From: Nitrospirota bacterium
GTDB lineage: Bacteria > Nitrospirota > UBA9217
DNA: 64,000 nucleotides
NCBI GenBank assembly: GCA_963790205.1
Contig: CAWBNQ010000003.1
Location: 608,785-672,784, forward strand
Direction: 5' to 3'
The notes beneath the pieces are model-generated. The model made no database searches, was not told where the DNA came from, and was given only the letters and a program-made list of their open reading frames with translations. The position numbers and the translations under genes are program-made. Below, piece after piece: positions 7,926-58,739 of the stretch (positions within the stretch are counted from its first letter, which is position 1; every line of letters starts with the position of its first letter).

Positions 7926-8948
7926 TCATGCTTTTACGCGGTCCGACCTCTTCCCATCATACGGCAATTCTATCGTCATCGCGGTTCCCTCCCCCCTCAT
8001 GCTGTTAACGCGGATTTTTCCCCCGTGCCCCTCGACGACCTTTTTCGCGATGGACATGCCGAGGCCCGTCCCGTCCCGCTTCTTCGTGTAAAAAGGGACG
8101 AATAAATTTTCGAGGGTTTCTTTTTCCATACCGGGACCCTGGTCCAGAATCCTGATCCTCAGACTGCTGCCGCCCGCCTCCAGGGCGATGGAAACGCGCT
8201 GCTCCTTGCCCGAGGCTTCGATGGCATTGGTGATGAGATTCATCAAAGCCCTCTCCATGTGAAAACTGTCTATGCCTTTATTCAGGGGAACAGAGGGCAG
8301 ATCGATTGACAGAACCACGCCTTTCTGCTCTGCCTTTATCCTGCACGAGTCGCACGCATGCGTTATAATGTTCCGCATATCTTCTTGTTTCAGCTCCCAC
8401 CGCGTAGGCCGGGCGAAATCAAGTACGTCATGCACGATTTTCTCCATCTGGGTAGCAGAATTAATGATCACCTGCGCCTCGGCCTCGGCCTTTCCCTTTC
8501 CTTCCTTGATGCGTTCCGCGAACCCCAATATCGCAAAAAGCGGATTTTTCAAATCATGGGCGATGACTGCGGCCACCCGGCCGATCGCGGAAAGGTATTG
8601 TTCTTTTTCCAATTGTTCCTGTTGTTTTCTTTCCCGATCGACGAGGTATCCGGCGATGATCGCGAACAGGCCCTGCAGCAGGAGCGGCAGCAATCGGTTC
8701 GTCTCATTGAGAAGCGAGCCAGGCCAGGTCATGATCACGTAAGGAAGATAGAGGACAAAGACCAGCAGATATGACAGCAGGGCGCCAAGAAGGCCGTATG
8801 CAAGCGCGCCGAGAAGCACCGGTATATAATATAATTCCCGGTAGATATTGTGCAAGGCGTGGCCCTCGCCGATAGACGCGTAGTGCACGTAGGTGATGAA
8901 CAGGGTAAGAGCGACGATAACAATTCCGCTGTATCTCCTCAGGCGCAT
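7926..8948 (-). CDS. Membrane sensor histidine kinase.
   Basis: N-terminal TM helices, H-box AHDLKNPL and HATPase G-boxes GTGLGMSIAKKVVEGHGGKIRVNS. Confidence 0.8.
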   Translation of the reverse strand: MRLRRYSGIVIVALTLFITYVHYASIGEGHALHNIYRELYYIPVLLGALAYGLLGALLSYLLVFVLYLPYVIMTWPGSLLNETNRLLPLLLQGLFAIIAGYLVDRERKQQEQLEKEQYLSAIGRVAAVIAHDLKNPLFAILGFAERIKEGKGKAEAEAQVIINSATQMEKIVHDVLDFARPTRWELKQEDMRNIITHACDSCRIKAEQKGVVLSIDLPSVPLNKGIDSFHMERALMNLITNAIEASGKEQRVSIALEAGGSSLRIRILDQGPGMEKETLENLFVPFYTKKRDGTGLGMSIAKKVVEGHGGKIRVNSMRGEGTAMTIELPYDGKRSDRVKA

Positions 8949-9047
8949 GCGTTTCTCCTCGTTCGAAAATAACGACGCTCATCCGATGGATATATTCTCT
9001 ACCCGAATAATCAGGAGTGCAGGACCGTGTCCGTGGACGAGGAGCTC

Positions 9048-9671
9048 TTAACGCATCCGGCCGGCATCGGCGCGCGCAGCGGAGGCGTCCTGGGGCCAGG
9101 GAGACTCTCCTTCTATCTTTGCAAGAGCACGCCACAATATGTTCTGAAGGTCGTCGCCCGTTTTGTTCCCCAGGAATGTCGCCGTCAGGGTCTCGCGCAG
9201 CGTAAGCATGAGCGGGTCCGTCTTGAGGAACGACAGAAATATCCGCAGGCGCGCTTCTCCGGTGCCGATCTTCGACGCCGTCTTCAGGCTCCCGTTGTTC
9301 CCGTAGTATTGCTGCAGGTAGATCAAAAACCACAGCTGGGACATATCGTAAAAAAATTCGAGCGCGGGATAGTGGCTGTACAGCCGCCTGATTTCCTCTT
9401 CCAGCGACACGCGGTTGGTCGGGACGTCGGGAAAAACGGCGACCAGCAGCCCTTCCGCAAAATCCTCGTAGAAGAAAAAGGAGCCTGAAAACTGCCGGTT
9501 CCCGCAGCGGGGGCAGGTAATGACATTGAAGGTCCATTCTTTCAGCAATACCTTCACCTGCGGTGACCGGGAAATGTCGACCCACGTGGCGATCGTGGCC
9601 TGAAAATCATTCTTGCAGCGAGCACACTGGAAGGTCTCAGTATTGTATGCTTCAGCTTGAAAAGTCAGCAT
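9048..9671 (-). CDS. CpXC domain-containing protein.
   Basis: Paired CxxC motifs (CARCKND ... CPRCGN) in the arrangement typical of the CpXC family. Internal ATG chosen. Confidence 0.45.
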   Translation of the reverse strand: MLTFQAEAYNTETFQCARCKNDFQATIATWVDISRSPQVKVLLKEWTFNVITCPRCGNRQFSGSFFFYEDFAEGLLVAVFPDVPTNRVSLEEEIRRLYSHYPALEFFYDMSQLWFLIYLQQYYGNNGSLKTASKIGTGEARLRIFLSFLKTDPLMLTLRETLTATFLGNKTGDDLQNILWRALAKIEGESPWPQDASAARADAGRMR

Positions 9672-9864
9672 CTGTTCACCCCTATAAATTTTATCGTGAA
9701 TGATCGCCGAAGACAGGGCAGAAACAGGCCGGAACCGACGCACCGGCTTTCCCGGGGCGGGCAATCACCCGTGTGTGCACATGGCACATATGGCCGGAGT
9801 GTGGAAGTCGGGCGCTGAGTGCACTGTCTGTTCGGAAAAAACGTGAAACAGAATATCGGGGTGA

Positions 9865-10140
9865 CTACGCGGGAGGGGCGCGGCTTTCTGTGGCTGAGGG
9901 AAGAGCTTTCGGCAGATTATACGAGATCCCCGGAGATACAGATGTTTCTACCTGGCGAACATCGTGGCAAATCACATAATGTGCGTTTGTTGCGGTGAAG
10001 AGCTGGTCATAGGCATTACAGAAGGGGCAGTCCTTGCGAAGCGTCTCGTTATCAATCGGACAATAAGCCGGTACAAGGGCGAGTATGAAGAGAATCGCTA
10101 CAAAAAGAAGCGCAATCCTCTTCTGCATGGTTCCAGTCAT
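9865..10140 (-). CDS. Hypothetical small secreted protein.
   Basis: Signal-peptide-like N-terminus (MQKRIALLFVAILFILALVPAYC) with several Cys. Confidence 0.3.
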   Translation of the reverse strand: MTGTMQKRIALLFVAILFILALVPAYCPIDNETLRKDCPFCNAYDQLFTATNAHYVICHDVRQVETSVSPGISYNLPKALPSATESRAPPA

Positions 10141-10476
10141 GTGTGAATTATACAGAGGGGAAACTTCAGAGTCAAGGTTCTTTTGAGCCCGGAAACGCCT
10201 GAACAAAAGGAAGCGCGGTCTCGACATCAGGCAGAGGGGGCCGATCGTCGCCGCCTGGCGAACATCCGGCAGGCGGACGCGGGACACCTCCTCGGCCGGA
10301 CCGGGAGGCCGTTTTTCAACACGCGGCAATTGGCGCCATGCTCAACCATGCCGTGCGGCCACGCGGTGCGGCGGTCGTTTCTTGACGGGGATTATGTACT
10401 TGCGGAGACCGGGGGAAGGGATAACGATAACACACGGGTGAGCCCCGCTATGCGGGACTCGTACCCGCAGGTTGAA

Positions 10477-11547
10477 CTACTGGTCACTTTTTTTATGATG
10501 TTTCATTGCAGTCTTGACGAACTGTCCGAATTTTCTGTCCTTTCTACGCTTTTCAACGTAGGACAGCTCGTTGTATTCAGATTCCTTCATCAGCTTCAAA
10601 AAGCTCTGATATCGATCCGCTTGTAATGTGCCATTGTCAATTGCGTTTAGGAGTGCGCAACCGACTTCCTTGGTATGAGTGCAATTGGCAAAACGACAGG
10701 TTTTTGAAAGGCTCCAAATATCAACGAAGCTTTCTTCAAGACCCGAACTGGCGCCGATATTCCCCAGTTCCCTCATTCCAGGGGTGTCGATCAGCATTGC
10801 CCCTTGATCGAGGACGATCAGTTGGCGCTGCGCCGTCGTGTGTTTGCCCTTCCCGTCGCTTGCACGGACTGTGTTTGTCTCAAATAAATCGCGGCCTATA
10901 ATATGGTTCAAGAGCGTTGTTTTGCCTACTCCGGAAGATCCAACGAGACAATACGTTTTGCCCGGCTCCAGTAATTGACGCACGTGATCCAATCCGAAGC
11001 CGGTCACGTTGCTGAGCGGAAGGACTTTGCATTGGATGTTAGCTTGACGTACTTCCGATATTCTTTGCTCCAGCTTCTCGGGGCTGACCAGATCGCTTTT
11101 TGTCAAGAGGAGGGTCGGTTCAACGTGCCCTTCGTTTACCATCACAAGGTAGCGCTCCAGCCTGCGCAGATTGAAATCGAAATCACAGGCTTGCACGATC
11201 AAGGCGGAATCTATGTTGACCGCGATCATCTGGTAGTCTATTTTTTTACCAGGGGCTTTTCTCCGTAAAAAAGATTTGCGGGGGAGAAGACCATGGATGA
11301 TGGCAAAGGTATCATCGTTGTGAAACTGGACAAGTGCCCAATCACCTACCGAAGGAAGATCTATGCTCGACTCAACTGAGTAAATAAAATTTCCTGCTAA
11401 TTCGGCAAACACTTCGCTCTTATTATTTCTTATAAGGTAGCTGTCCTTATGGACCGCAGTCACGCGAGCCACGGTGCAGTCTGGTCTCAGCGCCTCCGAT
11501 CTTTTGTCTTCAAACCACTGATCAAATCCGAGCGTTATAAGTTCCAT
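10477..11547 (-). CDS. rsgA: Ribosome small-subunit-dependent GTPase A.
   Basis: Circularly permuted GTPase motifs: DTPGMRE, P-loop GSSGVGKTTLLN and a C-terminal Zn-finger CRFANCTH. Confidence 0.9.
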   Translation of the reverse strand: MELITLGFDQWFEDKRSEALRPDCTVARVTAVHKDSYLIRNNKSEVFAELAGNFIYSVESSIDLPSVGDWALVQFHNDDTFAIIHGLLPRKSFLRRKAPGKKIDYQMIAVNIDSALIVQACDFDFNLRRLERYLVMVNEGHVEPTLLLTKSDLVSPEKLEQRISEVRQANIQCKVLPLSNVTGFGLDHVRQLLEPGKTYCLVGSSGVGKTTLLNHIIGRDLFETNTVRASDGKGKHTTAQRQLIVLDQGAMLIDTPGMRELGNIGASSGLEESFVDIWSLSKTCRFANCTHTKEVGCALLNAIDNGTLQADRYQSFLKLMKESEYNELSYVEKRRKDRKFGQFVKTAMKHHKKSDQ

Positions 11548-11551
11548 ATTA

Positions 11552-11604
11552 AGTTAACGAGTTCACGCGCCGCGAAGCAGTCGGCGTGGAACGACAGGTT
11601 ATGC
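11552..11604 (-). other. attC site (distal-most, abutting the chromosomal rsgA).
   Basis: AGTTAAC ... internal imperfect palindrome ... GTTATGC, ending at the stop of the last cassette ORF. Confidence 0.5.
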
Positions 11605-12236
11605 TATTTGCTCTTGGGCGCGAATATCTCGTTTACTTGAGCACGTAACTTCTCACCATGCTGTCCAGGGTTCCTAGTGTATGTATAAGATGTAATCAAT
11701 TGCTTGTTGTGCAGTACGTATATGACTGGTATAGAATTGTCGTAATAGCGAACGCCGAACTTTGTAAATAATTCGTCAGCTCGCTCTCGTGTCTGTTTTC
11801 CGCATTCAACAATCAGAATACTCATTTTTTTTGGATCAGGAGAACCAGAAGGTGTTAGGGCGTCCCTTTCTTCAAGTCTTCGTACATCCTTGAGATAGCC
11901 CTCAAGAACGCCGGCAGGCGTTAGATTATTGCGTTTCTTGGCAGGGAACCAAGTTGGACCACTATGCCGGCCGGAATTCTTAAGGTTATTTTCATCATAA
12001 GAATCTACAAGGCACAATATGACGATTTCTGCGGAATCAAGTTGGTTTAGTACGCTTTCCCACGATACTATGGAAACCGGCCAATAAGTGTTCCCCTCAT
12101 TCGAATCATGACTCGGTTTTGCACAAGCAGAAAGAAAAACGAATGCGATTACAGCAATGATTTTGACAAATTTCATTAATATCCTCCCCGTGCTCTTAAT
12201 GGGGAATTGCGACGACGGAGGTGATTTTATATGCAT
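11604..12236 (-). CDS. Cassette-encoded lipoprotein, hypothetical.
   Basis: Lipobox LSAC after a signal peptide (probable start MKFVK about 12176). Low GC. Confidence 0.45.
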   Translation of the reverse strand: MHIKSPPSSQFPIKSTGRILMKFVKIIAVIAFVFLSACAKPSHDSNEGNTYWPVSIVSWESVLNQLDSAEIVILCLVDSYDENNLKNSGRHSGPTWFPAKKRNNLTPAGVLEGYLKDVRRLEERDALTPSGSPDPKKMSILIVECGKQTRERADELFTKFGVRYYDNSIPVIYVLHNKQLITSYTYTRNPGQHGEKLRAQVNEIFAPKSK

Positions 12237-12817
12237 TTTGCCTTTTTCTTTACAGCAACAATATAGTCTTCATAGCTGTCGAACCCAGTAGGCAAATTAA
12301 TTTTCATATTCGGATTTTGTTTCCGAAATGTCTGGTAATCTGTCAAACTTTGATCATAATGCTTACATGCCTCGTTTTCATCTCCAATATACGATAAATA
12401 TGTGTTGCCCATAACGAGATCAATATTGGTTAATGCATCATACTTGGCATTTTTAACAAGGATCTCTTTTGCCATCTGAAAATATTCAATCGACTTTTTG
12501 TATCGTACGTCAAAGTTTATCGACTTGTCGAGGAAACCATTTTTTCGATAATGCGGTTCCCATCGGTCTACAGTCGGAGACTCCAAGAAGAAAGCATATT
12601 GCCGATACGTCTCAGCAAGCCCAAGTTCGTCATTCTTACTCTGATATATGTCTCTCGCCTCTAGAATCAAACGTTCCGCCGGTAAAGGACGATTTTGTTT
12701 TTCATATAAATTGTGAGCCCAACCAAGTTTTTCTCTAGGGTCACTTGTTACAGGTACCCCCATCGCTGCACATCCCGTAAGTGTTGCGACTATCAAAGCT
12801 ATGGCAAAGCGATGCAT
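12227..12817 (-). CDS. Cassette-encoded lipoprotein, hypothetical.
   Basis: Signal peptide plus lipobox LTGC. No known domain. Confidence 0.45.
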   Translation of the reverse strand: MHRFAIALIVATLTGCAAMGVPVTSDPREKLGWAHNLYEKQNRPLPAERLILEARDIYQSKNDELGLAETYRQYAFFLESPTVDRWEPHYRKNGFLDKSINFDVRYKKSIEYFQMAKEILVKNAKYDALTNIDLVMGNTYLSYIGDENEACKHYDQSLTDYQTFRKQNPNMKINLPTGFDSYEDYIVAVKKKAKCI

Positions 12818-12837
12818 AAATCGTCTTTCCTCCTTCT

Positions 12838-12894
12838 GGATAACACGCGGCTGACGCGCCGCACGGCGCGTCGCAGTCGAGCCGCAGGTTGGTA
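12838..12894 (-). other. attC site.
   Basis: GGATAAC ... GACGCGCCG/CGGCGCGTC stem ... GTTGGTA, 8 nt before the antitoxin stop. Shares the core GCGCGTCGC(T/A)GTCGAG with other attCs. Confidence 0.7.
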
Positions 12895-12901
12895 TCCCGA
12901 A

Positions 12902-13213
12902 TCAGCTGTGAGATGCTGCTGCATGCAGTTTCAAGCCGAGCGCATCCATGACCTTGAGGATGGTATCGAAACCGGGACTGCGTTCGCCGGAGAGCGCTTT
13001 ATAGAGACTTTCGCGTGATAAACCGGAGTCACGCGCGACCTGCGCCATCCCTTTTGCACGGGCAATATCGCCCAGTGCCTTGGCAATGAATGCAGCATCG
13101 CCGTTGGCCTCCTCAAAACATGCCTCAAGATATGCGGCCATTTCCTCCGGGGTGCGAAGATGTTCGGCAACATCGTACCGTGTTGTTTTGGTTTTGGCTT
13201 TTGTCTGGCTCAT
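12902..13213 (-). CDS. Addiction-module antidote protein (HigA-like HTH antitoxin).
   Basis: Resembles the 'probable addiction module antidote protein' family (TIGR02684-like). It lies downstream of, and 9 nt from, the toxin gene. Confidence 0.7.
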   Translation of the reverse strand: MSQTKAKTKTTRYDVAEHLRTPEEMAAYLEACFEEANGDAAFIAKALGDIARAKGMAQVARDSGLSRESLYKALSGERSPGFDTILKVMDALGLKLHAAASHS

Positions 13214-13222
13214 AATGCCCTC

Positions 13223-13513
13223 CTACAGATTGTGTGCGAGGCGTAACGCTGTCTTGATATCAGCGGCCTGAGTGCGTTTATCTCCACCGGCCAGCAAAAT
13301 TATCAATGTACGGCCTCGCATCGTGTAATACACCCGGTATCCGGGACCATAGTCGATTCGCAGTTCCGAGACACCCTCACCGACTGGCTTAACGTCACCA
13401 GGATTCCCCGTGGCTAAGCGTTCGACGCGAGCCTGCACGCGGGCGCGTGCATGAATGTCGCGCAGGCCATCAAGCCACTTAGCATATGTATCAGTTTTTC
13501 GGATTTCGAGCAT
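13223..13513 (-). CDS. Addiction-module killer protein (RelE/ParE-superfamily, HigB-like toxin).
   Basis: 96 aa. Resembles the 'putative addiction module killer protein' family (TIGR02683-like). Toxin-first (HigBA) order. Confidence 0.7.
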   Translation of the reverse strand: MLEIRKTDTYAKWLDGLRDIHARARVQARVERLATGNPGDVKPVGEGVSELRIDYGPGYRVYYTMRGRTLIILLAGGDKRTQAADIKTALRLAHNL

Positions 13514-13520
13514 GAATGTA

Positions 13521-13538
13521 TTGTAGCCTTATGGCTAC
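13521..13538. promoter_or_regulatory. Perfect palindrome TGTAGCCttaTGGCTACA just upstream of the toxin start: candidate TA operator.
   Basis: A 7-bp inverted repeat with a 3-nt spacer, immediately 5' of the toxin start codon. Confidence 0.4.
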
Positions 13539-13840
13539 ACATTGTCAATATTTTTCAATTAGGTTAATGTGCAACGTTATCAAAAGACAGGCAGGATAAT
13601 GAAGGCAGTGAATGACGTAAAGGACACAACGAATATCCAGAACCAGATTCCTATTTTCCCATCTTTACGTCGCGTGATCGCGATATAGTCAAAGATATTC
13701 TATAAAACTAGCAAAGTAATTGCTCTTCCCTGTCTCATTTCGAGCAATAGTCGAAATTCGCATGGCTGAGATTCCGGCAGCAATGGCGGAGAGCCATTTT
13801 ATGATTTGAATGAGAATCATGATGTTTTAGACTAATGCGG

Positions 13841-13936
13841 GGCTGAGCCATGACCCCTTGGGGTCATTGGTCTCCAGCTCCTGGTTCTCCCGGCGCGTTT
13901 TTCGCGCTGGGAAGGAGCGCATGGCTCAGCCCCGCA
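13841..13936. repeat. Long structured palindrome: 19-bp perfect inverted repeat AATGCGGGGCTGAGCCATG around a nested imperfect palindrome.
   Basis: Read directly. No ORF. It lies between the TA cassette and the next attC. Confidence 0.5.
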
Positions 13937-13957
13937 TTCTCGCGGCGCGAAGCGCCG

Positions 13958-14016
13958 GGAGAACGCGGCGCTGACGCGCCGACCTTGGCGCGTCGCTGTC
14001 GAGCGCCAGGTTAATC
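13958..14016 (-). other. attC site.
   Basis: GGAGAAC ... GACGCGCCG ... GGCGCGTCGCTGTCGAGCGCCAG ... GTTAATC. The TAA stop of the upstream cassette ORF lies inside the core. Confidence 0.7.
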
Positions 14017-14490
14017 ATTGTTCTTTTGTTCTGTGTTTAGTTCATCAAGTTCTTTTCGGCTGAGCGTAAACGACATAAATAAAAACAGAAAGCTGATAAT
14101 GAAATAAGCGGTATATTCTGCAAGCACGGAAAAGGAGTGCATCCATTTCCAAAATCCCATACCAATGGGGATTGAAATAGGTCCGAGCCATTTCGGGATA
14201 GGAATACTTTTCAGCTTTGATCTGAATTTCCAAATTACGAGCCATATTGGACAGACAGCTAACAAGTCGAAGAAAATGATTTTATTAAGGGTTATCAAGT
14301 CTAGCTCTTTTTCTGTCTTTGCCATGAATAAAAGGGCAATGAAAACGAGAGCAGATGCATATTGTGAACGTGACTTAAAAGGTCTTTTACTGAATTTGCG
14401 AAGGGCCAATACGAGTGTAACGGCAAATGCTATACACGCAATGGAAACGAGAAGAATATAAAGGTAGAATTTGTCCGTACTCATTTCCAT
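14011..14490 (-). CDS. Cassette-encoded small membrane protein, hypothetical.
   Basis: Four or five hydrophobic helices. AT-rich. Confidence 0.35.
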   Translation of the reverse strand: MEMSTDKFYLYILLVSIACIAFAVTLVLALRKFSKRPFKSRSQYASALVFIALLFMAKTEKELDLITLNKIIFFDLLAVCPIWLVIWKFRSKLKSIPIPKWLGPISIPIGMGFWKWMHSFSVLAEYTAYFIISFLFLFMSFTLSRKELDELNTEQKNND

Positions 14491-14521
14491 TTGTCACCAA
14501 ACCATGATCAAATTATTTCCC

Positions 14522-14581
14522 GATTAACACGCGCCTGACGCGCCGCCTTCGGGCGCGTCGCTGTCGAGGCGCTTGTTAGGC
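14522..14581 (-). other. attC site (best-formed).
   Basis: GATTAAC-ACGCGCC ... GGCGCTT-GTTAGGC are near-perfect reverse complements, with central GACGCGCCGCCTTCGGGCGCGTC. It lies 33 nt before the SIR2 gene stop. Confidence 0.8.
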
Positions 14582-14614
14582 TACCTTTCCTCTTGTCATG
14601 TTCGAACTAGATGT

Positions 14615-15748
14615 CTAGTGGGCTTTTTTGATAGCTACGTATTCTTCGAGCGTTTTGTAGTATTTCAGATCATGGCCACGGAATATGCTAGCATAACGTT
14701 TCTTCAGTTGGGAGCCCCGCTTGCAAGCAGCTGGATTCACCACGTCGATTTCAATCTTTGTAAATTTTGGCTGTGGTCGCATTTCTTCAACAAGATAATT
14801 AATTTGCCGAAAGAGCCATTCAGCGTAGCAGTCAGTGGAGGGAAAAGAATAACCTATAAAGACAAGTCTCCTGCTTTGCTGAAGTTTTCGCCTAGCGATT
14901 TTCCACTGGCGGTTGTAAAGACTGTTCTGATGAATTTCAATTTTTTCTGACACAGGAGGGATGATGTTTATCTCCATTACGGAATTGCAAGACTTACACT
15001 TAGGATAATCAGCAAGTGTTATTTCCGCGATGTTTCCTTTTTTACTTCTTATAAATGTGTTTGTCTTCTTTGATTTGCATTTATCGTTTCTGCATGTTGC
15101 CCAGTTTAATGACCCATGAAGCTTCAAATAAACAGGGGCAGAATAGTAGGTTGTTATCCGGTTGTGACCTGTTATTAGTGCGACATAATTCTTAAAATGT
15201 GCTTTGTCATGTTTTTCAAGTGTAACATCTGCTATTGTGTCCCAATTGAACGAAACCACAGTGTCGAGATCAGACAAATCTCCGAACAGCCTTTCTAAAT
15301 ATCCACAGTATTGTCCGTAAGACCGCATGGTAAGCATCAATGTGATGAATCGCACAAGACTTCTTTTCGCTTCAAGGAAGACTTTTTGGTACGCACTGCC
15401 TTTAGGGTACATCTTTGTCCCAATGTCGAAATGAGTAAAAACACTTTCAATGTTCAAACCTTTCCAAGTGCTACCATCATAAAAAGAGCGCGTGTCGTCT
15501 AGTTTGTATGTTTGGTGCAAAAGAAGATTGAGCCCTTCATGTGTAGCTCCAAGCAAATTTAAGAAATTGGTACCCGTTGCGCCGTATTCTTTGTCGGAAA
15601 CCAATATGTCATAAAAGAAATTATCACCAGAAGGCATTCGCCGATCTCGAAGCCAGTCGTCCGATTCCGGCAGCCGTTTAGCTCCAATTGATGCACCGGC
15701 ACCGAGTATATACATCGTTCCGCGATCGTCATTATCTATAGCCATCAA
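14615..15748 (-). CDS. SIR2-like (SIR2_2/DHS-like NAD-binding) domain protein with a C-terminal Cys4 zinc ribbon.
   Basis: N-terminal MYILGAGASIGA, characteristic of the SIR2_2 family. C-terminal CRNDKC...CKSC. Cassette location. Confidence 0.6.
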   Translation of the reverse strand: MMAIDNDDRGTMYILGAGASIGAKRLPESDDWLRDRRMPSGDNFFYDILVSDKEYGATGTNFLNLLGATHEGLNLLLHQTYKLDDTRSFYDGSTWKGLNIESVFTHFDIGTKMYPKGSAYQKVFLEAKRSLVRFITLMLTMRSYGQYCGYLERLFGDLSDLDTVVSFNWDTIADVTLEKHDKAHFKNYVALITGHNRITTYYSAPVYLKLHGSLNWATCRNDKCKSKKTNTFIRSKKGNIAEITLADYPKCKSCNSVMEINIIPPVSEKIEIHQNSLYNRQWKIARRKLQQSRRLVFIGYSFPSTDCYAEWLFRQINYLVEEMRPQPKFTKIEIDVVNPAACKRGSQLKKRYASIFRGHDLKYYKTLEEYVAIKKAH

Positions 15749-15788
15749 TTCTCACGTATTTCCTTTCGCGACCCTCTCGACGCGACTG

Positions 15789-16529
15789 TTAGTCGGCAGA
15801 GTCGATCTTTATAGCTTCTTCAACTCGTCGGCACAACAAACTGGAAAGAACGAGGTATTGGGCTGCAACGTTCTGAGTTGGATTAATAGTAAGAGTATGT
15901 GCTTTCGGATTTCTTACTCCCTGATATACGCCTTGAAGAATCTGGATAAACCCCTTCTGATCGTTACAACCGGACTCTGTTTCCAAAGATGAAAGGACAA
16001 GAACTGGTCTTTGCAAGGAAAATGTTGCGGCAACAAGTTCGGGACCATCCTTGTCAATTCCTGTGCGTTCTCGAATAAAATCAAAAACTGTAACAATGGA
16101 ATTTAAAACAGCATCCCTAAAACGACCAGCTCTGAAGTGGGCATATGAAGCCGCAGTTACTCTCGGATGTAGAAGGTCTAGGATTGAATAGCTAAGGTCA
16201 GAGTAGGGTTGTGATGAAAAATAGTCATCTATTGCATCCTCTAGTTGTGTTATTAGCTCTAGGATGCTCCAATGCGAACCCCTTTCGTCAGCAGCGATAT
16301 GATGTAAAATATCCTTAATTTTAGAACTATCAAGTCCTTTTGGCCAAATACGCTCAAGATCTCCAAGTGACCGCACCAATAGGCTTGTAAGTGAGCCGGT
16401 CGCATAGCCTTCGCCCTCATTGAACTTCGCATCCATAATTTCTCGTGTGGTTGCTTGGATGGCCCGAAGTGATCTGTTTATTGCTATGTATTTTTCTATC
16501 ATATATTTCCCTTGGCGACAGGCTGTCAC
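15789..16529 (-). CDS. Hypothetical protein, possibly Hypoth_Ymh/Abi-like (C-terminal RNPKAH motif).
   Basis: 246 aa. The C-terminal GVRNPKAHTL resembles the conserved motif of the TIGR02391 family. Weak. Confidence 0.3.
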   Translation of the reverse strand: MTACRQGKYMIEKYIAINRSLRAIQATTREIMDAKFNEGEGYATGSLTSLLVRSLGDLERIWPKGLDSSKIKDILHHIAADERGSHWSILELITQLEDAIDDYFSSQPYSDLSYSILDLLHPRVTAASYAHFRAGRFRDAVLNSIVTVFDFIRERTGIDKDGPELVAATFSLQRPVLVLSSLETESGCNDQKGFIQILQGVYQGVRNPKAHTLTINPTQNVAAQYLVLSSLLCRRVEEAIKIDSAD

Positions 16530-16576
16530 ATAAAATGTACTTAATGTATATATGCCTCTACATATGATGTGATTTA

Positions 16577-17416
16577 TTAGCGCGCATCTTGGCTTGGTTC
16601 CGGGTTATCGATTTGTTCAACTGTGACGGTTGCAGCTATAGCGTTCCATGCATCAAGCATCCAATGTGGTAATTGGTCATGTCGTTTTACCGATACTCGC
16701 GCATTTGCGTATGGCATGTGAGGTAAGAGGACGGTTCTAACAATGAGAGTGTCTGGATTGACTTGAATTGGGGCGATGAGATCAGGTGACTGGGTGATGT
16801 TTTCTCGACTCTGCATATAGAGTGGCACAAGGTAGTTCATTCGCCCGTAATACCAGTACGGAAGTTGCAAGCCTCGATTAATTGACCACTGAATAGCCCC
16901 AGATACAGCGCACATCTGCGAAACCGGGGGCGTTTGTCCTAAAAAAGGTACGCGATCTGAATTGTCTCTGAGTATGTGGTCATGAAGCATGACGATCTCA
17001 GCTCCGCATGGCAACGCTGGCGCTGCTGGTAAATCAGGCGGCGTTGGTAGTGCACCGGCAGAGATATCGGAGCCGACGTGAACGCAGTAAAGAGGCCCAC
17101 GCCCTGCATTGGTGTTCCTCTCAAATACCATGTAAATTGGCGTCCCGTATCGCGTCTGTAAGTGTCCGGCGGTGACGAATAATTGGTTACTACTGGTGGT
17201 GTATCGATCTTGCTCGATGCTCCAAGCGATATGGACAGCAAGATATTTCTCAAGAACGTAGTTGTCGTTTCCCCAATTTTCAGAGAGGGCTGTACTGCTA
17301 AGCGATGAAAAGATGCGTTGCGGGATTTGGGCAAGGCGTCGCAATCGAACTACCACTTCGTTTGTGAATGGATCTCCTAATGCGGCCGATAGTTCTTCTT
17401 TCGTGAATGACATCAA
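16577..17416 (-). CDS. Hypothetical cassette protein.
   Basis: 279-aa ORF with a TTG/ATG start. No recognised domain. Confidence 0.35.
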   Translation of the reverse strand: MMSFTKEELSAALGDPFTNEVVVRLRRLAQIPQRIFSSLSSTALSENWGNDNYVLEKYLAVHIAWSIEQDRYTTSSNQLFVTAGHLQTRYGTPIYMVFERNTNAGRGPLYCVHVGSDISAGALPTPPDLPAAPALPCGAEIVMLHDHILRDNSDRVPFLGQTPPVSQMCAVSGAIQWSINRGLQLPYWYYGRMNYLVPLYMQSRENITQSPDLIAPIQVNPDTLIVRTVLLPHMPYANARVSVKRHDQLPHWMLDAWNAIAATVTVEQIDNPEPSQDAR

Positions 17417-17466
17417 GCCTCCTTGGAACTAACATGTTATTGACTATAAGGACCAGGTTTATGATA

Positions 17467-17829
17467 TCAATAACCTTCTGACTCCCCGTTTATGATAAGC
17501 CGTTCCAATTCAGTTCCCTTGATTTTGCCGTATTGAATATGCCAGGCGCGTGTTTTTGGATCCCATTTCCCTTGCGCCGCTTTGGCCTTCTCCCGCAAAA
17601 CTGTATCATTATATGCAATGCGCACAGGCACTCGAGTGTTGTCCTCGAATCGGCGTACAGCAGGCGCCCAGGTTTTCTTCTCAATGATCAGTTCTGCGGT
17701 CTTCAGCCGGGTGCGGCTCACCTTGTCGTAACGGTAGCGTACGCAGAGGAGCGCCGCGCCGTATTTGGCAACCAGGCTTTTTGTCCCTTTTTGCCCCGGT
17801 TTCAGCTTGATGGTCGTAATGATTGGCAT
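17467..17829 (-). CDS. Hypothetical protein, first cassette next to attI.
   Basis: 120-aa basic protein. No recognised domain. Confidence 0.35.
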   Translation of the reverse strand: MPIITTIKLKPGQKGTKSLVAKYGAALLCVRYRYDKVSRTRLKTAELIIEKKTWAPAVRRFEDNTRVPVRIAYNDTVLREKAKAAQGKWDPKTRAWHIQYGKIKGTELERLIINGESEGY

Positions 17830-17839
17830 CGCATCCCCC

Positions 17840-17930
17840 TCAAGGGTATAACATGGAAAAGCCTACTATAAATATCCACTAATTGCAAGAATTTCAATGG
17901 GGTATCGCGGGGTATTGAGGCCGGGGTATT
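17840..17930. promoter_or_regulatory. Putative attI region: GGGTATAAC core-like site plus three GGGGTAT(T/C)G direct repeats abutting the intI start. Pc is expected here.
   Basis: Direct repeats at about 17899, 17909 and 17923. It lies between the first cassette ORF start and intI. Confidence 0.35.
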
Positions 17931-19378
17931 GCTAATTCGATATATTCCCGGTATGCCATCCTGTATGGAACCCATCCCCCCGGATACCCTTGCTCGCTTT
18001 AACAACTTCATGAAACGGCATAATGTCGCCCCTCTTTGCCGGTCCGATTACCGGAAGTGGCTCCGCTATTTTCTCGACTTTCGCGCCAAATATTCTCTGC
18101 CCGACCCTCATACCGATCAAGTGAAGCTGTTTGCGGAAAAGTTGCGGTCGAAGAATCAAACCACGGCGCAGGTAAAACAGGCGACTGATGCGATCTCGCT
18201 TTATTTCTCTCTCCAGCCTGAAATTGAAATTGTCTCTACGACGGGGCTCATGCGGCGTCAGGACCGGACGGAGGAACAACGTCTGTCGGAACGGCGCTCT
18301 TCCCCGGAGCAGTCTCCTGAGTTGGTCCGTGAGCCTCCCGGACTTTTGCAGGCCCAGCCTCCCGTCAGATCAGGCAGGCGGTATGACGAATGGCGTTGCC
18401 TCAGAAAAACCGCGTCACCTGCGTGGGACGGGGTGATCGGAAAGCTGGCCGAGGAAATAAAGGTCCGGCACTATTCCCGCAAAACACTCAAACACTATGC
18501 TGATTGGATCAGAAAATTTCAGAATTACCTGAAAGACAAAACACCCGGGGATCTGTCCTCGCAGGATGTCAAAGAGTATCTCACTCATCTGGCCGTCTAA
18601 GGAAGACGTCTCTTCAAGCCACCAGAATCTCGCATTCAATTCTCTGCTGTTTCTGTACAGGCACATCCTGAAGAAGGACTTTGGAGATCATAAAGATGTC
18701 CCGCGCGCGAAGACCTCGAACTATATCCCTGCGGTTCTTTCCCGCAAGGAGATCGATTCGGTTCTGGTTCATCTCAGACATCCCTTCAGGCTTGTGGCCC
18801 AGCTCCAGTATGGCTGCGGGCTGCGCATTTCCGAGGGCTGCCAGCTGCGCGTCAAGGATTTTGACTTCGATACGGGTCTCCTTAGGGTGCGGGGAAAGGG
18901 CGACAAAGTACGGACCGTGCCGCTGCCGAAAACGCTCCTCACGGAACTTCATGCCCAGTTGGAGCACGTGAAAAAACTGCATGAGGAGGATCTCACAGCG
19001 GGTTTCTCCGGGGTCTTTCTCGACGATCAACTTGAAAAGAAGTATCCGCGGGCCGCGAAGGAGTTTGTCTGGCAATGGTTTTTCCCGCAGGAGTCGCTGA
19101 CTTTCATCGCTCAAACGAAAGAATCGCGGTGCTATCATGTGCATGATTCGCGGATGCAGGAAGCTTTCGGCGAAGCGGTGCGCAAGGCGAAACTCACAAA
19201 GCGCGTCACCTCCCACACCTTCCGCCATTCCTATGCAACCGCAATGCTGCAGGCCGGTTACGATCTCCGCACGATTCAGACGCTCCTTGGCCACGCGGAC
19301 GTCAGGACCACGATGATCTATCTGCACTGCCTCCCGCCAAAACCCGGGAAAGAGGTAAAAAGCCCGTTGGATTTCTGA
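17929..19378 (+). pseudogene. intI: Integron integrase IntI, split into two ORFs by a +1 frameshift at about 18590. It carries an about 150-aa N-terminal extension.
   Basis: The IntI-specific patch is present: LEKKYPRAAKEFVWQWFFPQ ... HDSRMQEAFGEAVRKA. Catalytic RxxR, HxxR and Y are present: HTFRHSYATAMLQAGYDLRTIQTLLGHADVRTTMIYLHCL. ORFs 17929..18600 and 18566..19378 are in different frames. Confidence 0.85.
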
Positions 19379-20188: not shown

Positions 20189-20923
20189 GGGTCTGGCAGC
20201 GTCACTGGACGGTGTACACCAAGCTCTACAAGACGAGCTTTGCGCTCAACTTCGCCGAACCGGCGCTGTACCTCGTGGCCATGGGTCTGGGGCTCGGCGC
20301 CTTCGTGAAGGACATCCACGGCGTGCCGTATATCAAGTACATCGCGCCCGGCATCATCGCCTCCTCGTCGGTCTTCGCCGCGGTGTACGAGTGCACCTAC
20401 GGCACGTACATCCGGATGACCTTCCAGAAGACCTTCGACGCCATCCTCGCGACGCCGGTGAACCTCGACGATCTTGTGGCGGGCGAGCTCATCTGGGGCG
20501 CGACCAAGAGCGTGATCTTCGGGATCACGATCATGATCGTCGTGGCCCTCTTCGGGCTCGTGGATTCGCCCTTGATCCTCCTCGCCATCCCTTTCATCTT
20601 CCTGGGCGGGCCTGATCTTTGCCGAGCTTTCGCTTGTCTTCTGCGCGCTCGTGCCGGGCATCGACTTTTTCAGCTATTTCTACACGCTCTTCATGACGCC
20701 GCTGTTTTTGTTTTCGGGAATATTTTTCCCCCTCGACGCCATGCCTCCCATCGTTGCCCGCCTGGCGTTCTTTACGCCGCTCTATCACCTCGTGAACGTG
20801 TGCCGCGCTTTTTCAGCAGGGACCGTCTCCGGGGCGGGCGTGGACATCCTCTGGATCGTGCTGATTGTTCTCATCCTGGCGCCCTTTCCCTTCAGGCTCA
20901 TGAGAAAGAGGATCATCGTTTGA
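20167..20923 (+). CDS. ABC-2 type transporter permease, frameshifted at about 20610 (extra C in GGGCGGGCC).
   Basis: The N-terminal part is in frame 1. The C-terminal part (PGIDFFSYFYTLFMTPLFLFSGIFFPL) is in ORF 20651..20923, frame 2. The continuous 612-aa track ORF is an artefact. Confidence 0.7.
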
Positions 20924-51373: not shown

Positions 51374-52379
51374 TCATTCTTCTTTCAACTCTCTGGACAT
51401 AAGGTCTCTTACCGCCCGTTTCGGGTCCTTGCCCTCGTACAGGATCAGATAGACCTCATCCACGACCGGCATGTCGACGTTGAACTTTCTGGCCAGGTCC
51501 CGGGCCGCCCGGGCCGTCTTCACGCCTTCGGCCACGGTCTTGACGCCCTTCATGATATCGTCCAGCTTTTCACCCTTGCCGAGCCGCACGCCGAGCGTCC
51601 GGTTGCGCGACAAACCTCCCGTGCACGTGAGCACCAGATCGCCCATGCCGGCGAGACCGGAAAAGGTCTCGAGGTTGCCGCCCATGGCGACGCCGAGGCG
51701 GGCCATTTCTGCTAAGCCCCGCGTGAGCAGGGCCGCGGCGGTGTTGTAGCCGTAGCCCATGCCTTCGAGCACGCCGGCCGCGATGGCGACGACGTTCTTG
51801 AGCGAGCCGGCAAGCTCCACGCCGATGACATCGGGATTGGTATAAATGCGGAAATAGGCGTTGCTGAAGATTTCCTGCGCTTTCCTGCCGAGAGCGGGGT
51901 CGTACGAAGCGAGAGAGACCGCGGTGGGCATCTTTTGCGCCACTTCTTTGGCGAAGCTCGGGCCGGAGAGGAAGCAGAGCCGGTTATGATACTCGTTTCG
52001 GCAGGATGTCCCTGAACACTTCCGAGAGCGGCATAAGCGTGTCGATCTCGATTCCTTTCGAGGCGCTCACGAGGACCGTATCGTCCGACAGAAACGGCGC
52101 GAATTGTCCGGACACGGCGCGCACGGTGTGGGAGGGGACAACGGAAAGGATCACAGCCCTGCCCGCGACGGCCGCTTCCATCGAAGCGGTCACCTTGATC
52201 GAGGCGGGCAGGGTGAACCCGGGCAAATAGACCCGGTTCTCCCGGGTGCGCGACGTCTCCTCGGCCAGGTCCTTCTCGTACATCCAGAGGGTGACGTCGT
52301 GCCCCTTGTCCGCGAGCAGCATGGAAAGGGCCGTGCCCCATGCGCCTGCGCCGATTACCCCGATTCTCTCAGTCATCAT
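51374..52379 (-). CDS. gpsA: Glycerol-3-phosphate dehydrogenase [NAD(P)+], split by a frameshift near 51950-51985.
   Basis: N-terminal IGVIGAGAWGTALS Rossmann motif (ORF 51984..52379) and C-terminal GpsA domain (ORF 51374..51943) in different frames. Confidence 0.8.
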
Positions 52380-52496: not shown

Positions 52497-52558
52497 AATG
52501 GGGCGGATGCGCGGATGAGCCGCGTGTTTTTCGCGGCGGTCTCGATCCGCTCGTTATG

Positions 52559-52559
<1 letters not shown>
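52497..52559 (-). other. attC site (terminal, next to gpsA).
   Basis: GCGGATGAGCCGCG ... CGGCGGTCTCGATCCGCTC-GTTATGC, ending at the stop of the RibD_C-like ORF. Confidence 0.5.
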
Positions 52560-53107
<548 letters not shown>

Positions 53108-53136
53108 TACGTAAGAGTACCTCTAATCATAGGTCA

Positions 53137-53195
53137 GCCTAACACGGTGTTGAGGGGCGGTGATTTTCCCGCCCCTCTCGGACACCAAGTTATAT
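53137..53195 (-). other. attC site.
   Basis: GCCTAAC-ACGGTGTTGAGGGGCGG ... CCGCCCCTCTCGGACACC-AA-GTTATAT. The TAA stop of the upstream ORF is embedded. Imperfect stem with extrahelical bases. Confidence 0.75.
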
Positions 53196-53768
53196 CACAC
53201 TCACGAGTAAACGTAATATCCAATAAAGTGTGAATGACGCACCAATGAAAATTAATGTCCAAATTAAAGCGATAAGCCATTTTGATAATTGTACCGTTGG
53301 AATGACGGTGATAATTTTAGCCAAACCATCATCAGACTTTGCATAAGCATTGATTTTATCCCAAGTTGTAGGAGGAAAATATAAATATGAAATGGTAATT
53401 TGTTCTTTCGGAACTAAAACAGGTATAAGTAATTCTCCAGAACCATCATCGTTACGCTCAACGGAATATTTGATCTTTGGGAAAACGGTGATATTAGGTG
53501 GTAAATAATTATGTCCAACTCTGACGTTGTGGGCTGATTTATTCCCGGCATTGCGAAGGATAATGCTATGAGTAAAGACGACGGTCTTTTGAGCATCTTG
53601 AAGAGTAAAAGAAGATATATGGCCTATATAGGAAACGAGTTTTGATCGTGTTTCTGTGTAGTATTTAATAATTGTTCCGAGGAGGAGCGTAATGATTGGA
53701 GAGAGTAATTTAAGAATTTGTTCGGTTGTCATAGAACCTCCCTTATCGTGTCCGCAATGTGGGTCCAT
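53190..53768 (-). CDS. Hypothetical membrane protein (cassette).
   Basis: N- and C-terminal TM helices. AT-rich. Confidence 0.35.
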   Translation of the reverse strand: MDPHCGHDKGGSMTTEQILKLLSPIITLLLGTIIKYYTETRSKLVSYIGHISSFTLQDAQKTVVFTHSIILRNAGNKSAHNVRVGHNYLPPNITVFPKIKYSVERNDDGSGELLIPVLVPKEQITISYLYFPPTTWDKINAYAKSDDGLAKIITVIPTVQLSKWLIALIWTLIFIGASFTLYWILRLLVSVI

Positions 53769-53860
53769 TGTTATGCAAAAAGAAGTAATTTCAAATGACC
53801 CTAATGTAAAAACAACAGATTGCGAATGCCAAAAATGCGGCTGGTCACAATATCACTCAC

Positions 53861-53913
53861 ATATAACGCGCCGGTCACGCGCCGCTTTTTAGCGCGTCGC
53901 TGTGGACCGGCAG
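53861..53913 (-). other. 5' portion of an attC site interrupted by the group II intron.
   Basis: ATATAAC-GCGCCGG ... GCGCGTCGCTGTGGACCGGCAGG matches the attC family consensus up to the core. The intron sequence begins in place of the TT(RRRY) core. Confidence 0.6.
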
Positions 53914-55866: not shown

Positions 55867-55873
55867 AATATGC

Positions 55874-56767
55874 TCATTTAGATTTCCAACTTATGCGGCG
55901 CAATAGGACGCCATCGTCAAGAGCGATAAGGTGATAAATATCTCCCTCTGAATCCACTGCAAATCTTTCATCGAAATTGCCCCGATATCTAATTTGAATT
56001 GGCTTTTCAATTTTCTTGGATTGCACATCACCATTAATTTGGTATTGTATCTTTATGTTTTTGTCCTTATTTTCGATTTGTACAGTTGTCGTTATTGCAT
56101 AATTATTCTTTCGAGAGTTATTAGATTTGATGCGATAAAAAGTCCCTTCTTTGTCATACCAAGAGAAATGATCATGATTTGGATTCTTTACATATTTAAG
56201 GAAATTTCCATCAAAATCATAAACTGCTGACTTTCCCGATCCTCCAATAACACAAGTAACATGGCCCATCTGTTCATCGCTGCTTATCTCAGAAAAATAC
56301 TCTTCTGTCTTCGGGTTAAGCTGCTGAGCGCCAAATTTATTTAATATCTTGCCACCGGAGGATATTTTGTAAATATCGTCATTCAGCATATTATAATAAG
56401 GTGGCTTTGCTATGAGGGCGAAGAAGTTGTCATTCAAAATAGCGAATCGACCAGCAAGTCCTTGTTTGATCCAATCGAAACCGAGAGGGATCTTTCTAAT
56501 GAACTTACCGTTTAAGTCGAAGACTTGAATTCGGTTATTCATAGAATCGAAAATATAAATATGACTTTTGTAAAGTTGAAAGTCTAGCGAATAGCCCAGT
56601 TCCGTTTTGCCAAGAGTTTCTCTACCAAATTCGCCGTCTTTGTCGCCCCAATTACCAACGATTAATATGTTGTCACTGATATTAGGGCCGCAAAATGCGG
56701 GCGAGGTATATAAACTGCAAAAAAGAACGATGATCATGACGTATTTCAGAACTTTCATGAATACCAC
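55874..56767 (-). CDS. Secreted protein with NHL-repeat-like beta-propeller motifs (cassette).
   Basis: Signal peptide. IYIFDSMNNRIQVFDLNGKF-type repeats. Confidence 0.4.
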   Translation of the reverse strand: MVFMKVLKYVMIIVLFCSLYTSPAFCGPNISDNILIVGNWGDKDGEFGRETLGKTELGYSLDFQLYKSHIYIFDSMNNRIQVFDLNGKFIRKIPLGFDWIKQGLAGRFAILNDNFFALIAKPPYYNMLNDDIYKISSGGKILNKFGAQQLNPKTEEYFSEISSDEQMGHVTCVIGGSGKSAVYDFDGNFLKYVKNPNHDHFSWYDKEGTFYRIKSNNSRKNNYAITTTVQIENKDKNIKIQYQINGDVQSKKIEKPIQIRYRGNFDERFAVDSEGDIYHLIALDDGVLLRRISWKSK

Positions 56768-56787
56768 CTTTGATGAGCTTTTATTCG

Positions 56788-56847
56788 GATTAACGCGCGG
56801 GTGAGACGCGCGTATTTTGCGCGTCGTTCTCGACCCGCAGGTTGGGT
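56788..56847 (-). other. attC site.
   Basis: GATTAAC-GCGCGGG ... GACGCGCGT...GCGCGTCG ... CCCGCAG-GTTGGGT. It abuts the TGA stop of ORF 56847..57677. Confidence 0.75.
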
Positions 56848-57677: not shown

Positions 57678-57681
57678 TTTT

Positions 57682-58164: not shown

Positions 58165-58214
58165 AACGTATTTTATGATACCTTTTTTATTATTTGGCTT
58201 AGTCCAATGTTAAG

Positions 58215-58700: not shown

Positions 58701-58739
58701 CTCCCTGCGGCAGAGGTGAAGAGCCCGCTTGATTTTTAA

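Follow-up and report, generated by a model that had tools for sequence, protein, structure and literature searches.

Organization of a probable chromosomal integron with a conserved small gene between the integrase gene and attI

Organization of the locus

We analyzed a stretch of 64,000 nucleotides (contig CAWBNQ010000003.1 of assembly GCA_963790205.1, positions 608,785 to 672,784; hereafter the window), in which an earlier note made from the letters alone had described a complete chromosomal integron. The locus consists of an integron integrase gene (intI) on the forward (+) strand and, on the reverse (-) strand, of a small gene for a conserved basic protein of 120 amino acids (orf120), the recombination site attI, and an array of five cassettes which runs leftward from attI between 17432 and 10425 and in which each cassette ends in an attC site of approximately 55-60 nt (Table 1). 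An integron with intI, attI and an attC-bounded cassette array is therefore present as proposed, and its cassette genes indeed lie on the strand opposite to intI.

The array is also set apart by its base composition. Its GC content is 45.6% compared to 55-58% in the flanks, and the GC content at third codon positions (GC3) is mostly 0.31-0.54 in the cassette genes compared to 0.70-0.80 in core genes, so that the proposed drop in GC was found by both measures. In our view the region is very probably a genuine chromosomal integron whose attI is located beyond orf120 and whose clade occurs mainly in Nitrospirota and Geobacter-type bacteria.

Table 1. Features of the window (positions in nucleotides of the window; R1, R2 and R3 are covariance models described in the text; ORF, open reading frame)
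Feature	Position	Strand	Evidence or content
intI, long-form integron integrase	17965-19378	+	470 aa once corrected for the extra T at 18598
GGGGTAT direct repeats (three)	17899-17929 (17899, 17909, 17923)		in the 135-bp divergent orf120-intI intergenic region
orf120, conserved basic 120-aa protein (isoelectric point 10.1)	17467-17829	-	between intI and attI
attI	17429-17475	-	junction comparison with L004, L026, L082, L086
Cassette 1	17432 down to 14528 (ORFs 14615-17416)	-	DUF3825, HEPN/Ymh, SIR2-like; ends in attC C
Cassette 1 genes	DUF3825 16577-17416; HEPN/Ymh 15789-16529; SIR2-like 14615-15748	-	Pfam, NCBIfam
attC C	14522-14581	-	80.2, 74.9, 71.6 bits with R1, R2, R3; DNA fold z = -3.7
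Cassette 2	14011-14490	-	159-aa membrane protein; bounded by attC C and attC B
attC B	13958-14016	-	80.2 bits; 72.4 bits
Weak tenth attC-like site	13830-13893	-	R3 25 bits, E=8e-6; overlaps perfect 19-bp inverted repeat
Cassette 3	12902-13513	-	toxin-antitoxin pair; ends in attC A
Toxin, RelE/ParE family (HI1419 type)	13223-13513	-	TIGR02683, 136 bits
Antitoxin, helix-turn-helix (HI1420 type)	12902-13213	-	TIGR02684, 124 bits
attC A	12838-12894	-	78.9 bits
Cassette 4	11604-12817	-	196-aa TPR-like lipoprotein and 210-aa protein; ends in attC D
attC D, divergent	11552-11604	-	18.3 bits R1 (site absent from R1 training); 46.5 bits R3
Cassette 5	10477-11547	-	RsgA-family GTPase, TIGR00157 149.5 bits (cutoff 100); ends in attC 10425-10477
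Last attC of first array	10425-10477	-	21.8 bits, E=0.0012, R1 (site absent from R1 training)
Second array, without integrase	52502-58164	-	covariance model hits all +; Pfam; GC 39-49%
Second-array attCs	52502-52562, 53137-53198, 53861-53915 (site E, split by intron, resumes 55864), 56788-56850		covariance model hits
Second-array ORFs	52559-53107 (RibD_C), 53190-53768, 55874-56767, 56847-57677, 57682-58164		
Group IIC-attC intron	53916-55863	+	reverse transcriptase/maturase ORF about 54465-55784
3'-terminal remnant of a second intI (...EVKSPLDF, stop)	58704-58739	+	tblastn, 11 aa at 82% identity

The integrase

The intI gene is read in two overlapping + frames (17929/17965-18600 and 18566-19378; reading frames of 211 and 270 aa), and alignment with 20 homologues places its true start at the ATG at 17965. 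One inserted base (GTC-T-AAG, at 18598) brings a stop codon into frame at 18598-18600, so that no intact integrase is encoded in the window; the gene had correctly been called frameshifted.

If the extra base is removed, the protein scores 357.6 bits with the NCBIfam model TIGR02249 ‘integron integrase’ (cutoff 265) and 145 bits with the XerC and XerD models, well below their cutoffs of 335 and 330. It aligns with the structure of Vibrio cholerae IntI4 (VchIntIA, PDB 2A3V; E=1e-62) with no gap through the IntI-specific patch LTAGFSGVFLDDQLEKKYPRAAKEFVWQWFFP, and the RHRY motifs are present in this alignment. The enzyme is an integron integrase with the specific insertion attributed to it before. 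The earlier note had named the absence of this additional domain, and thus a generic XerC/D-like recombinase, as an outcome that would overturn its claim; the presence of the patch favours the integron.

The N-terminus is extended by approximately 165 residues, which include a second SAM-like domain at residues 9-83 (Pfam SAM_4, 26.8 bits, just under the cutoff of 27). More than 7,000 database proteins match the integrase at E<1e-30. Almost all of the best 120 homologues are approximately 450-540 aa long and most of them align at 98% query coverage, the top ones having about 477 aa and full-length coverage, so the long form is common.

attC sites

Three covariance models were used, namely R1, built from four sites and run unfiltered on the whole window, a narrower model R2 from the nine sites of the window, and a broader model R3 from 69 sites, all of them from Nitrospirota. 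The search with R1 gave nine sites, all on the + strand (starting at 10425, 11552, 12838, 13958, 14522, 52502, 53137, 53861 and 56788), and a weak tenth lies at 13830-13893. The nine sites have E values between 1e-22 and 1e-14, and for every one of them the + strand is the bottom strand. The four imperfect palindromes of about 60 nt recognized before (A to D in Table 1) are present at the positions given for them, and those at 10425-10477, 52502, 53137, 53861 and 56788 as well as the weak site had been missed. The core GACGCGCCG...GCGCGTCGCTGTCGAG said to be shared by all four occurs in A, B and C and is absent from D (11552-11604), which is divergent and reaches 18 bits with the four-site model; the inner stem of D resembles the stem of an aadA-type attC. 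A, B and C are 74-80% identical to one another and the other pairs 41-72%, which is moderate homogeneity and not the near-identity that had been claimed. The conserved halves of the sites occur above chance (5 matches vs 0.44 expected, and 4 vs 0.13 expected).

On the + strand the sites possess an R box (AAC...GTT), two mismatched positions, a covarying helix of 5 bp, an L box and a GC-rich terminal stem. The helix is found as GCGGC/GCCGC, GGCGC/GCGCC, GCGCC/GGCGC and GCCGG/CCGGC, and the L box TGAC/GTC(G)A has the compensatory variants TCAC/GTG(G)A and TGAG/CTC(G)A. Of the extrahelical bases which the note had advised looking for in the folded bottom strand, an unpaired G is present in 69 of 69 sites; it is located 8 nt before the GTT, which is itself found in 68 of the 69. 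The nine window sites have 93% of the cells paired and double changes in 10 out of 18 pairs. For the 69 sites, taken from the window and approximately 15 related genomes, these values are 92% and 15 out of 18, which none of 500 shuffles reached and which compare to 33-48% pairing in slid controls; the alignments of the 69 sites were fitted to the model, and this favours the structure somewhat. Judged by the covariation, the structure is that of attC sites, with R''/R' and L''/L' boxes, an extrahelical base and one common orientation.

In a reciprocal test R3 was run unfiltered over a 15-kb class 1 integron locus (L083, Escherichia coli plasmid p4M9F). The three top matches were the attC of qacL (21.4 bits, E=3.6e-5), the attC of aadA1 (17.7 bits, E=8e-4) and a third class 1 attC (13.6 bits, E=0.024). 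All three lie on the right strand, and in these matches the unpaired G of the model falls on the known extrahelical G, that of CTT(G)AA. In the aadA1 attC of the plasmid, GCTT(G)AACGAATTGTT, this G is located 8 nt before the GTT, the same spacing as in the attCs of the window.

The distribution of the sites among genomes bears on a quite different explanation, according to which there is no integron at all, the repeats being generic intergenic palindromes (similar to repetitive extragenic palindromes or terminators) and the recombinase an ordinary XerC/D-like enzyme. As GC-rich hairpins located at gene 3' ends, with about equal folding of both strands, the sites would fit such palindromes. In 80 loci encoding IntI relatives, 60 of the 61 hits of the attC family lie on the + strand upstream of intI, and with R3 the same applies to 25 out of 25 hits in Geobacter-type loci; R2 finds the family in Nitrospirota loci and not in Geobacter loci. 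Generic palindromes would not be expected in this single orientation in some 80 related loci, nor with an invariant unpaired G and covarying helices. In the other approximately 50 kb of the window, outside the arrays, the best + strand match has an E value of only about 0.07-0.5, the recombinase exceeds the integron integrase cutoff while staying far under those of XerC and XerD, and an attC-specific intron occupies one of the sites (see below). By genome distribution, integrase scores, covariation and intron this explanation is refuted, and we assign it a negligible probability.

attI and the crossover point

The attI site contains the simple site CTAAC-AT-GTTATTG (17429-17442) in an inverted-core layout, a conserved core GTTATTGACTATAAG, a single palindromic repeat that has been kept, GGTTTATGATATCAATAAC, and a promoter-like sequence TTGATA-16-TATAGT. 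It was located by comparing the point at which related loci cease to be alike (marked by an arrow). L004, L026 and L082 share ...AAC↓(C/A)(A/T)GTTATTGACTATAAG... with the window, and the DNA to the left of AAC is unrelated. The same point is found in L086, a contig 99.6% identical to the window, where the junction GGTCTAAC↓ATGTTATTGAC... corresponds to GGAACTAAC↓ATGTTATTGAC... in the window and a different gene follows to the left. Since the relatives and L086 all diverge at ...AAC↓, the crossover lies within CTAAC (17429-17433); by the canonical rule it would fall at AA↓C, between 17432 and 17433. Distant relatives across phyla possess a related core, AAC↓TCGTTAWT..GTTAG, downstream of orf120. 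The site thus heads the array as a primary recombination site, approximately 530 bp from intI, and it is atypical in that orf120 separates the two.

The sequence TTGATA-16-TATAGT (17443-17470, - strand) matches the promoter consensus at 10 out of 12 positions and points into the cassettes; the conserved core CTTATAGTCAATAAC contains its -10 element. On this consensus match we consider it a candidate cassette promoter (Pc).

The note had listed an attI with direct repeats, by which it probably meant the three GGGGTAT repeats next to intI. These repeats exist, located away from the cassette junction, and they are more likely regulatory or promoter sequence. If they nevertheless marked the true attI (together with GTATAAC, 17847-17853), orf120 would be a fixed first cassette and 17429-17433 a degenerate attC. 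This arrangement would agree with canonical integrons, in which attI abuts intI; in the orf120-intI intergenic region L081 has 95% identity to the window and keeps all three repeats and GGTATAAC, and the segment AAC-N24-CAGGTT (17431-17459) has superficially attC-like ends. That segment, however, is stemless and gives no hit with the attC models, whereas CTAAC-AT-GTTATTG has the layout of an attI simple site conserved across phyla. Insertions next to intI would displace orf120, yet it stays 100-317 nt from intI in 25 loci of several phyla; all cassette turnover begins at ...AAC↓ downstream of orf120, even between strains of 99.6% identity. Furthermore, the DNA between intI and orf120 is entirely different in L004, L026 and L082 and lacks the GGGGTAT repeats. 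An attI adjoining intI is therefore very improbable, and we place the site beyond orf120.

In L004, L026 and L082, unlike in the window and L081, the region of the GGGGTAT repeats is replaced by a promoter of the form TTGACA-GGTGAAC-N4-GTTCAC-TATACT (L004 about 9945-9975, L026 about 9985-10010, L082 about 2865-2895; also L002 about 9910-9940). The palindrome GAAC-N4-GTTC in the intI promoters of these relatives resembles a Cheo/LexA-type box, which suggests SOS control. L026 additionally carries an insertion sequence with a 388-aa DDE transposase between orf120 and intI (8536-9702).

orf120 and the palindrome cluster

The gene orf120 is transcribed toward the cassettes and divergently from intI. 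Among the 63 related loci with enough upstream DNA, 25 possess a homologue in the same divergent arrangement, 100-317 nt upstream of intI. Since the distance to intI is kept in these 25 loci, orf120 is not a cassette. Its carriers are Nitrospirota, Geobacter, Geomonas, other Desulfuromonadales and one cyanobacterial metagenome-assembled genome (MAG), which corresponds to approximately 40% of the loci with a long-form IntI. The layout is seen at L001, L004, L010, L026, L029, L031, L034-L039, L048-L059, L081, L082 and L086.

None of the 443 homologues of the protein has an informative name (one label from the Joint Genome Institute is clearly spurious), and the only profile match is a sub-threshold one to DUF5710. 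The AlphaFold2 model is of mediocre confidence (pLDDT 67.5), and a Foldseek search of it against PDB returned nothing below E=0.7.

The relatives possess four to six palindromes of approximately 18-20 bp between the attI core and the stop codon of orf120, which are specific for the lineage and vary with it (e.g. GTTTATGATATCATAAAC and GCATCTAATATTAGATGC, the latter being the Geobacter-type repeat). We counted clustered 9-mers, a measure which replaced an underpowered strict palindrome detector, and found at least six repeat copies in 14 out of 25 loci with orf120 compared to 2 out of 38 loci without it. All of these loci encode a long IntI. The possibility that the palindromes are bound by the N-terminal extension of IntI was rejected, as loci without orf120 have the extension and lack the palindrome clusters.

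Clustered repeats are associated with orf120. We tentatively suggest, while giving the idea rather less than even chances, that they could represent a previously undescribed module of the integron platform, with orf120 as a putative DNA-binding protein acting on the palindromes. In that case, orf120 bound to the palindromes would either assemble or orient the recombination complex at attI as an accessory factor, or control transcription into the cassettes. In the literature searched, which was incomplete, we found no description of a gene between intI and attI, of an N-terminal extension of IntI or of DUF5710 in integrons, and none of the layout intI, orf120, palindrome cluster, attI.

State of the platform in this strain

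A search with the exact sequence of the orf120 protein retrieved two short Logan contigs, L087 (run ERR12035932) and L086 (run SRR18214510). L087 agrees with the window at every position of 1,615 nt (100% identity) and has both the extra T and the shortened attI. L086 is 99.64% identical over 2,490 nt with the missing T as the single gap, and it encodes an intact IntI of 470 aa. Its attI has four palindromes, and the window has lost 69 bp and kept one. The lesion in intI looks like a strain-level mutation in this comparison, and the platform of the strain in the window has probably been disabled by the one-base insertion in intI together with the loss of three of the four palindromic repeats of attI. 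Since L086 possesses both intI and attI intact and carries a different first cassette, the system was recently active in the species.

It is conceivable that the integron of the window is fully functional, the frameshift in intI being an artefact of assembly or sequencing and perhaps the 69-bp deletion in attI as well. A hint towards this comes from two core genes in the same 64 kb which also appear frameshifted, gpsA (about 51940-51985; ORFs 51374-51943 and 51984-52379) and the gene of an ABC-2 permease (about 20600-20650; ORF starting at 20167 and ORF 20651-20923); the three apparent frameshifts may be either indel errors of the assembly or pseudogenes. The intact intI of the sister strain would fit this explanation too. 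It is opposed by the independent Logan assembly L087, which has the same extra T and short attI without any difference, and by the position of the insertion (GTC-T-AAG) outside any homopolymer. The intI gene also looks frameshifted in the relatives L004 (10004-10753) and L026 (9950-10609), which suggests recurrent decay of the integrase in the clade or again assembly errors in MAGs; if it is decay, then decay is common in this clade. Overall we consider a functional platform rather unlikely here, and a damaged platform in a recently active lineage remains our reading.

Points that weigh against a genuine chromosomal integron of this clade should be named together. Most of the spacer between the R and L boxes of the attCs is base-paired, whereas textbook attCs have an unpaired central spacer, and neither a truly unpaired central spacer nor a second extrahelical base (T) is evident in the sites. 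The model R2 is too sequence-specific to be significant on class 1 attCs (6.4 bits for the qacL attC), and Rfam, which is without an attC family, gave only two chance matches similar to microRNAs at permissive thresholds between 10.5 and 20 kb. Cassette 1 is unusually large (2.9 kb, three genes) and has no internal attC, so that part of it could be an insertion of another kind. The frameshift in intI could be an assembly error, as the apparent frameshifts in gpsA and the permease gene illustrate, and the host assignment given below rests on the labels of MAGs, mainly on synteny with Nitrospirota MAGs.

Cassettes of the first array

Cassette 1 contains three genes with PADLOC matches to Aga_HEPN, PD-Lambda-3_B and Aga_SIR2 (Argonaute-associated HEPN and SIR2), and it is possible that it represents a multi-gene anti-phage defence module within a single cassette of 2.9 kb. 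With filters off no attC hit was obtained between 14584 and 17433; the stretch 15760-15790 resembles half an attC, by eye only.

Cassette 3 holds, besides its toxin-antitoxin pair, a structured non-coding stretch which includes the weak tenth attC-like hit; this hit could possibly delimit a tiny sixth, empty cassette. The non-coding part of the cassette shows nested inverted repeats (13826-13975), among them a perfect 19-bp pair (13834-13852 and 13920-13938) and a 22-nt pair with 86% complementarity (13875-13896 and 13952-13973), which overlap the weak hit and the R' box of attC B. In L001 a motif of similar kind, GGTTCTCCC...GGGAGAACC, adjoins attI.

The TPR match in cassette 4 is weak. The rsgA-like gene of cassette 5 had been regarded as the neighbour which the array abuts. 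The array in fact runs through it to a further attC at 10425-10477, and since the gene has attCs on both sides and a cassette-like composition (GC3 0.53 vs 0.70-0.80 in core genes), it is a paralogue of a housekeeping-type GTPase carried as an integron cassette.

According to established integron biology, the integrase would act on the bottom strand of a folded attC and recombine it with attI, so that new cassettes would enter at 17432/17433, and cassette transcription would start from a promoter within attI or upstream of it, the candidates being TTGATA-16-TATAGT within attI and the promoter of orf120.

Second array and group II intron

A second set of four attCs, with five ORFs of the same orientation, is located between gpsA and a gene for a GDSL lipase. 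An attC cluster that has no integron integrase (CALIN) is defined by at least two attC sites without a neighbouring intI (PMC9024848), and the four sites between 52502 and 56850 form such a cluster. Next to the GDSL-lipase gene we found a remnant of the 3' end of a second intI; over 27-29 nt this remnant matches intI 3' ends at 93-96% identity. In L011 and L021 a homologous GDSL gene directly follows an intact intI, and 58712-63982 is syntenic there. Since only about 30 nt of intI are left where the relatives possess an intact gene, the second array is a degraded second integron. When a longer remnant was looked for by blastx in 58165-58703, nothing better than a weak alignment (28% over 92 aa, E about 1) was obtained, and only the final 30 nt or so are convincing.

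Site E of this array is split by a group IIC-attC intron. Introns of this type insert into the bottom strand of attC, opposite to the cassettes and between a gene and its attC (PMC3001079). The intron of the window is found in just this position, opposite to the cassettes, between a gene and its attC, at GT↓T of the bottom-strand 3' GTT. Rfam recognizes the ribozyme with hits to domains D1-D4 (RF02001 128 bits, RF01998 74 bits) and D5/D6 (RF00029 39.8 bits). The intron-encoded protein scores 409 bits with TIGR04416; only the RVT_1 and GIIM domains matched, and there was no match to an endonuclease domain. Its best plasmid relatives are 54-59% identical and belong to introns in class 1 integrons. 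One of these introns occupies the aadA1 attC of p4M9F with identical geometry, at GT↓T and opposite to the cassettes. The junctions read ...GAATTGT↓GTACGCC...CTACCCGAT↓TAGACATT in p4M9F and ...GGCAGGT↓GTACGCT...CTACCCGAT↓TAAAATATG in the window, and homology with the plasmid intron is found at both the 5' end (GTACGC...GCTAATGGGGTGCAAGTCCTCTGTA) and the 3' end (...GGCTACCCGAT). By sequence, with a ribozyme, a reverse transcriptase/maturase without endonuclease domain and the attC bottom strand as its target, this is a group IIC-attC intron which has homed into one attC of the second array.

Host of the integron

The backbone had been taken for a deltaproteobacterial one. The closest IntI loci are found in Nitrospirota MAGs at 76-79% nucleotide identity, and the loci which share flanking core genes, at 67-76% over several kb, are Nitrospirota MAGs as well. 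Few LarB homologues carry a name, namely one from Nitrospirota (88%) and one labelled Betaproteobacteria (86%). From these comparisons the host is most likely a member of the Nitrospirota, and the former assignment is not supported.

The vertical inheritance expected of a sedentary chromosomal integron (SCI) is seen in the flanks, which are syntenic with L015 around intI and with L011 and L021 at the second locus. The other mark of an SCI, a large array in which tens of cassettes or more carry attCs of high similarity, is not present. With five or six cassettes in the first array, four in the second and attC identities of 41-80%, the near-identity of the attCs that the note had taken as a hallmark of a sedentary integron was overstated.

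Implications

To our knowledge, the mechanics of integrons are known almost entirely from Gammaproteobacteria (class 1 integrons and Vibrio), in which attI abuts intI, and we know of no dedicated accessory protein. The locus documents a well-populated clade of environmental integrons with a longer integrase that contains a duplicated SAM-like domain and with an attC family of its own. The platform of this clade differs by a conserved small gene and an array of palindromes between intI and attI. The two near-identical strains, of which one has its platform intact and the other damaged and which differ in their first cassette, make the role of orf120 and the palindromes and the requirements of attI testable. 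Group II introns specific for attC, toxin-antitoxin cassettes and defence-like cassettes are extended to the chromosomes of Nitrospirota. In the complete genomes of the Nitrospira phylum IntegronFinder 2.0 had found two CALINs only and no complete integron (PMC9024848). Should orf120 prove to be only a passenger gene, the locus would still be a chromosomal integron of the ordinary kind, decayed in part, from a phylum that has been poorly sampled.

Comparison with known integrons and recombinases

As an analogy only, the platform can be compared to the lambda-type integrases with their arm sites, Xis and IHF. Common to both are an additional N-terminal domain of the recombinase, clustered repeats beside the crossover and the gene of a small basic protein next to the integrase. 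There is, however, no relationship in sequence or fold, and the palindromes track orf120 and not the extension of IntI.

The intron of the second array shares with S.ma.I2 and its relatives the insertion into the bottom strand, the orientation, the GT↓T junction and an intron-encoded protein with reverse transcriptase and maturase domains. Unlike these, and likened to them by similarity, it resides in an environmental chromosomal attC cluster without integrase in Nitrospirota.

With the class 1 arrays (aadA1-qacL, sul3-type integron of p4M9F) the integron shares the divergent orientation of intI and cassettes, attCs of approximately 60 nt with AAC...GTT ends, and the extrahelical G 8 nt before the bottom-strand GTT; the model R3 finds class 1 attCs. 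Both have an inverted attI simple site, which is CTAAC-AT-GTTATTG in the window. The bottom strand of attI1 reads CCTAAC-TTT-GTTTTAG. In contrast to class 1, the integron of the window is chromosomal and not borne on a transposon or plasmid, its cassettes contain no resistance genes, its IntI possesses an extra N-terminus of approximately 165 aa, a conserved gene and a palindrome cluster lie between intI and the crossover, and the spacer between the R and L boxes of its attCs is mostly base-paired.

The SCIs of Vibrio, with the Vibrio cholerae repeats (VCR) as attCs, and of Xanthomonas are likewise chromosomal, occupy an insertion locus common to related genomes and possess an attC family specific for the clade. 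VCR-type attCs are highly homogeneous, and decay of the integrase occurs in Xanthomonas integrons. A toxin-antitoxin cassette and defence-like cassettes are further features in common. Defence cassettes in SCIs are dealt with in a preprint (bioRxiv 10.1101/2024.07.02.601686). Compared to these integrons, the arrays of the window are short (5-6 and 4 cassettes vs tens to hundreds) and their attCs are 41-80% identical, and the integron differs from them in its phylum and in the architecture of a platform in which orf120 stands between integrase and attI.

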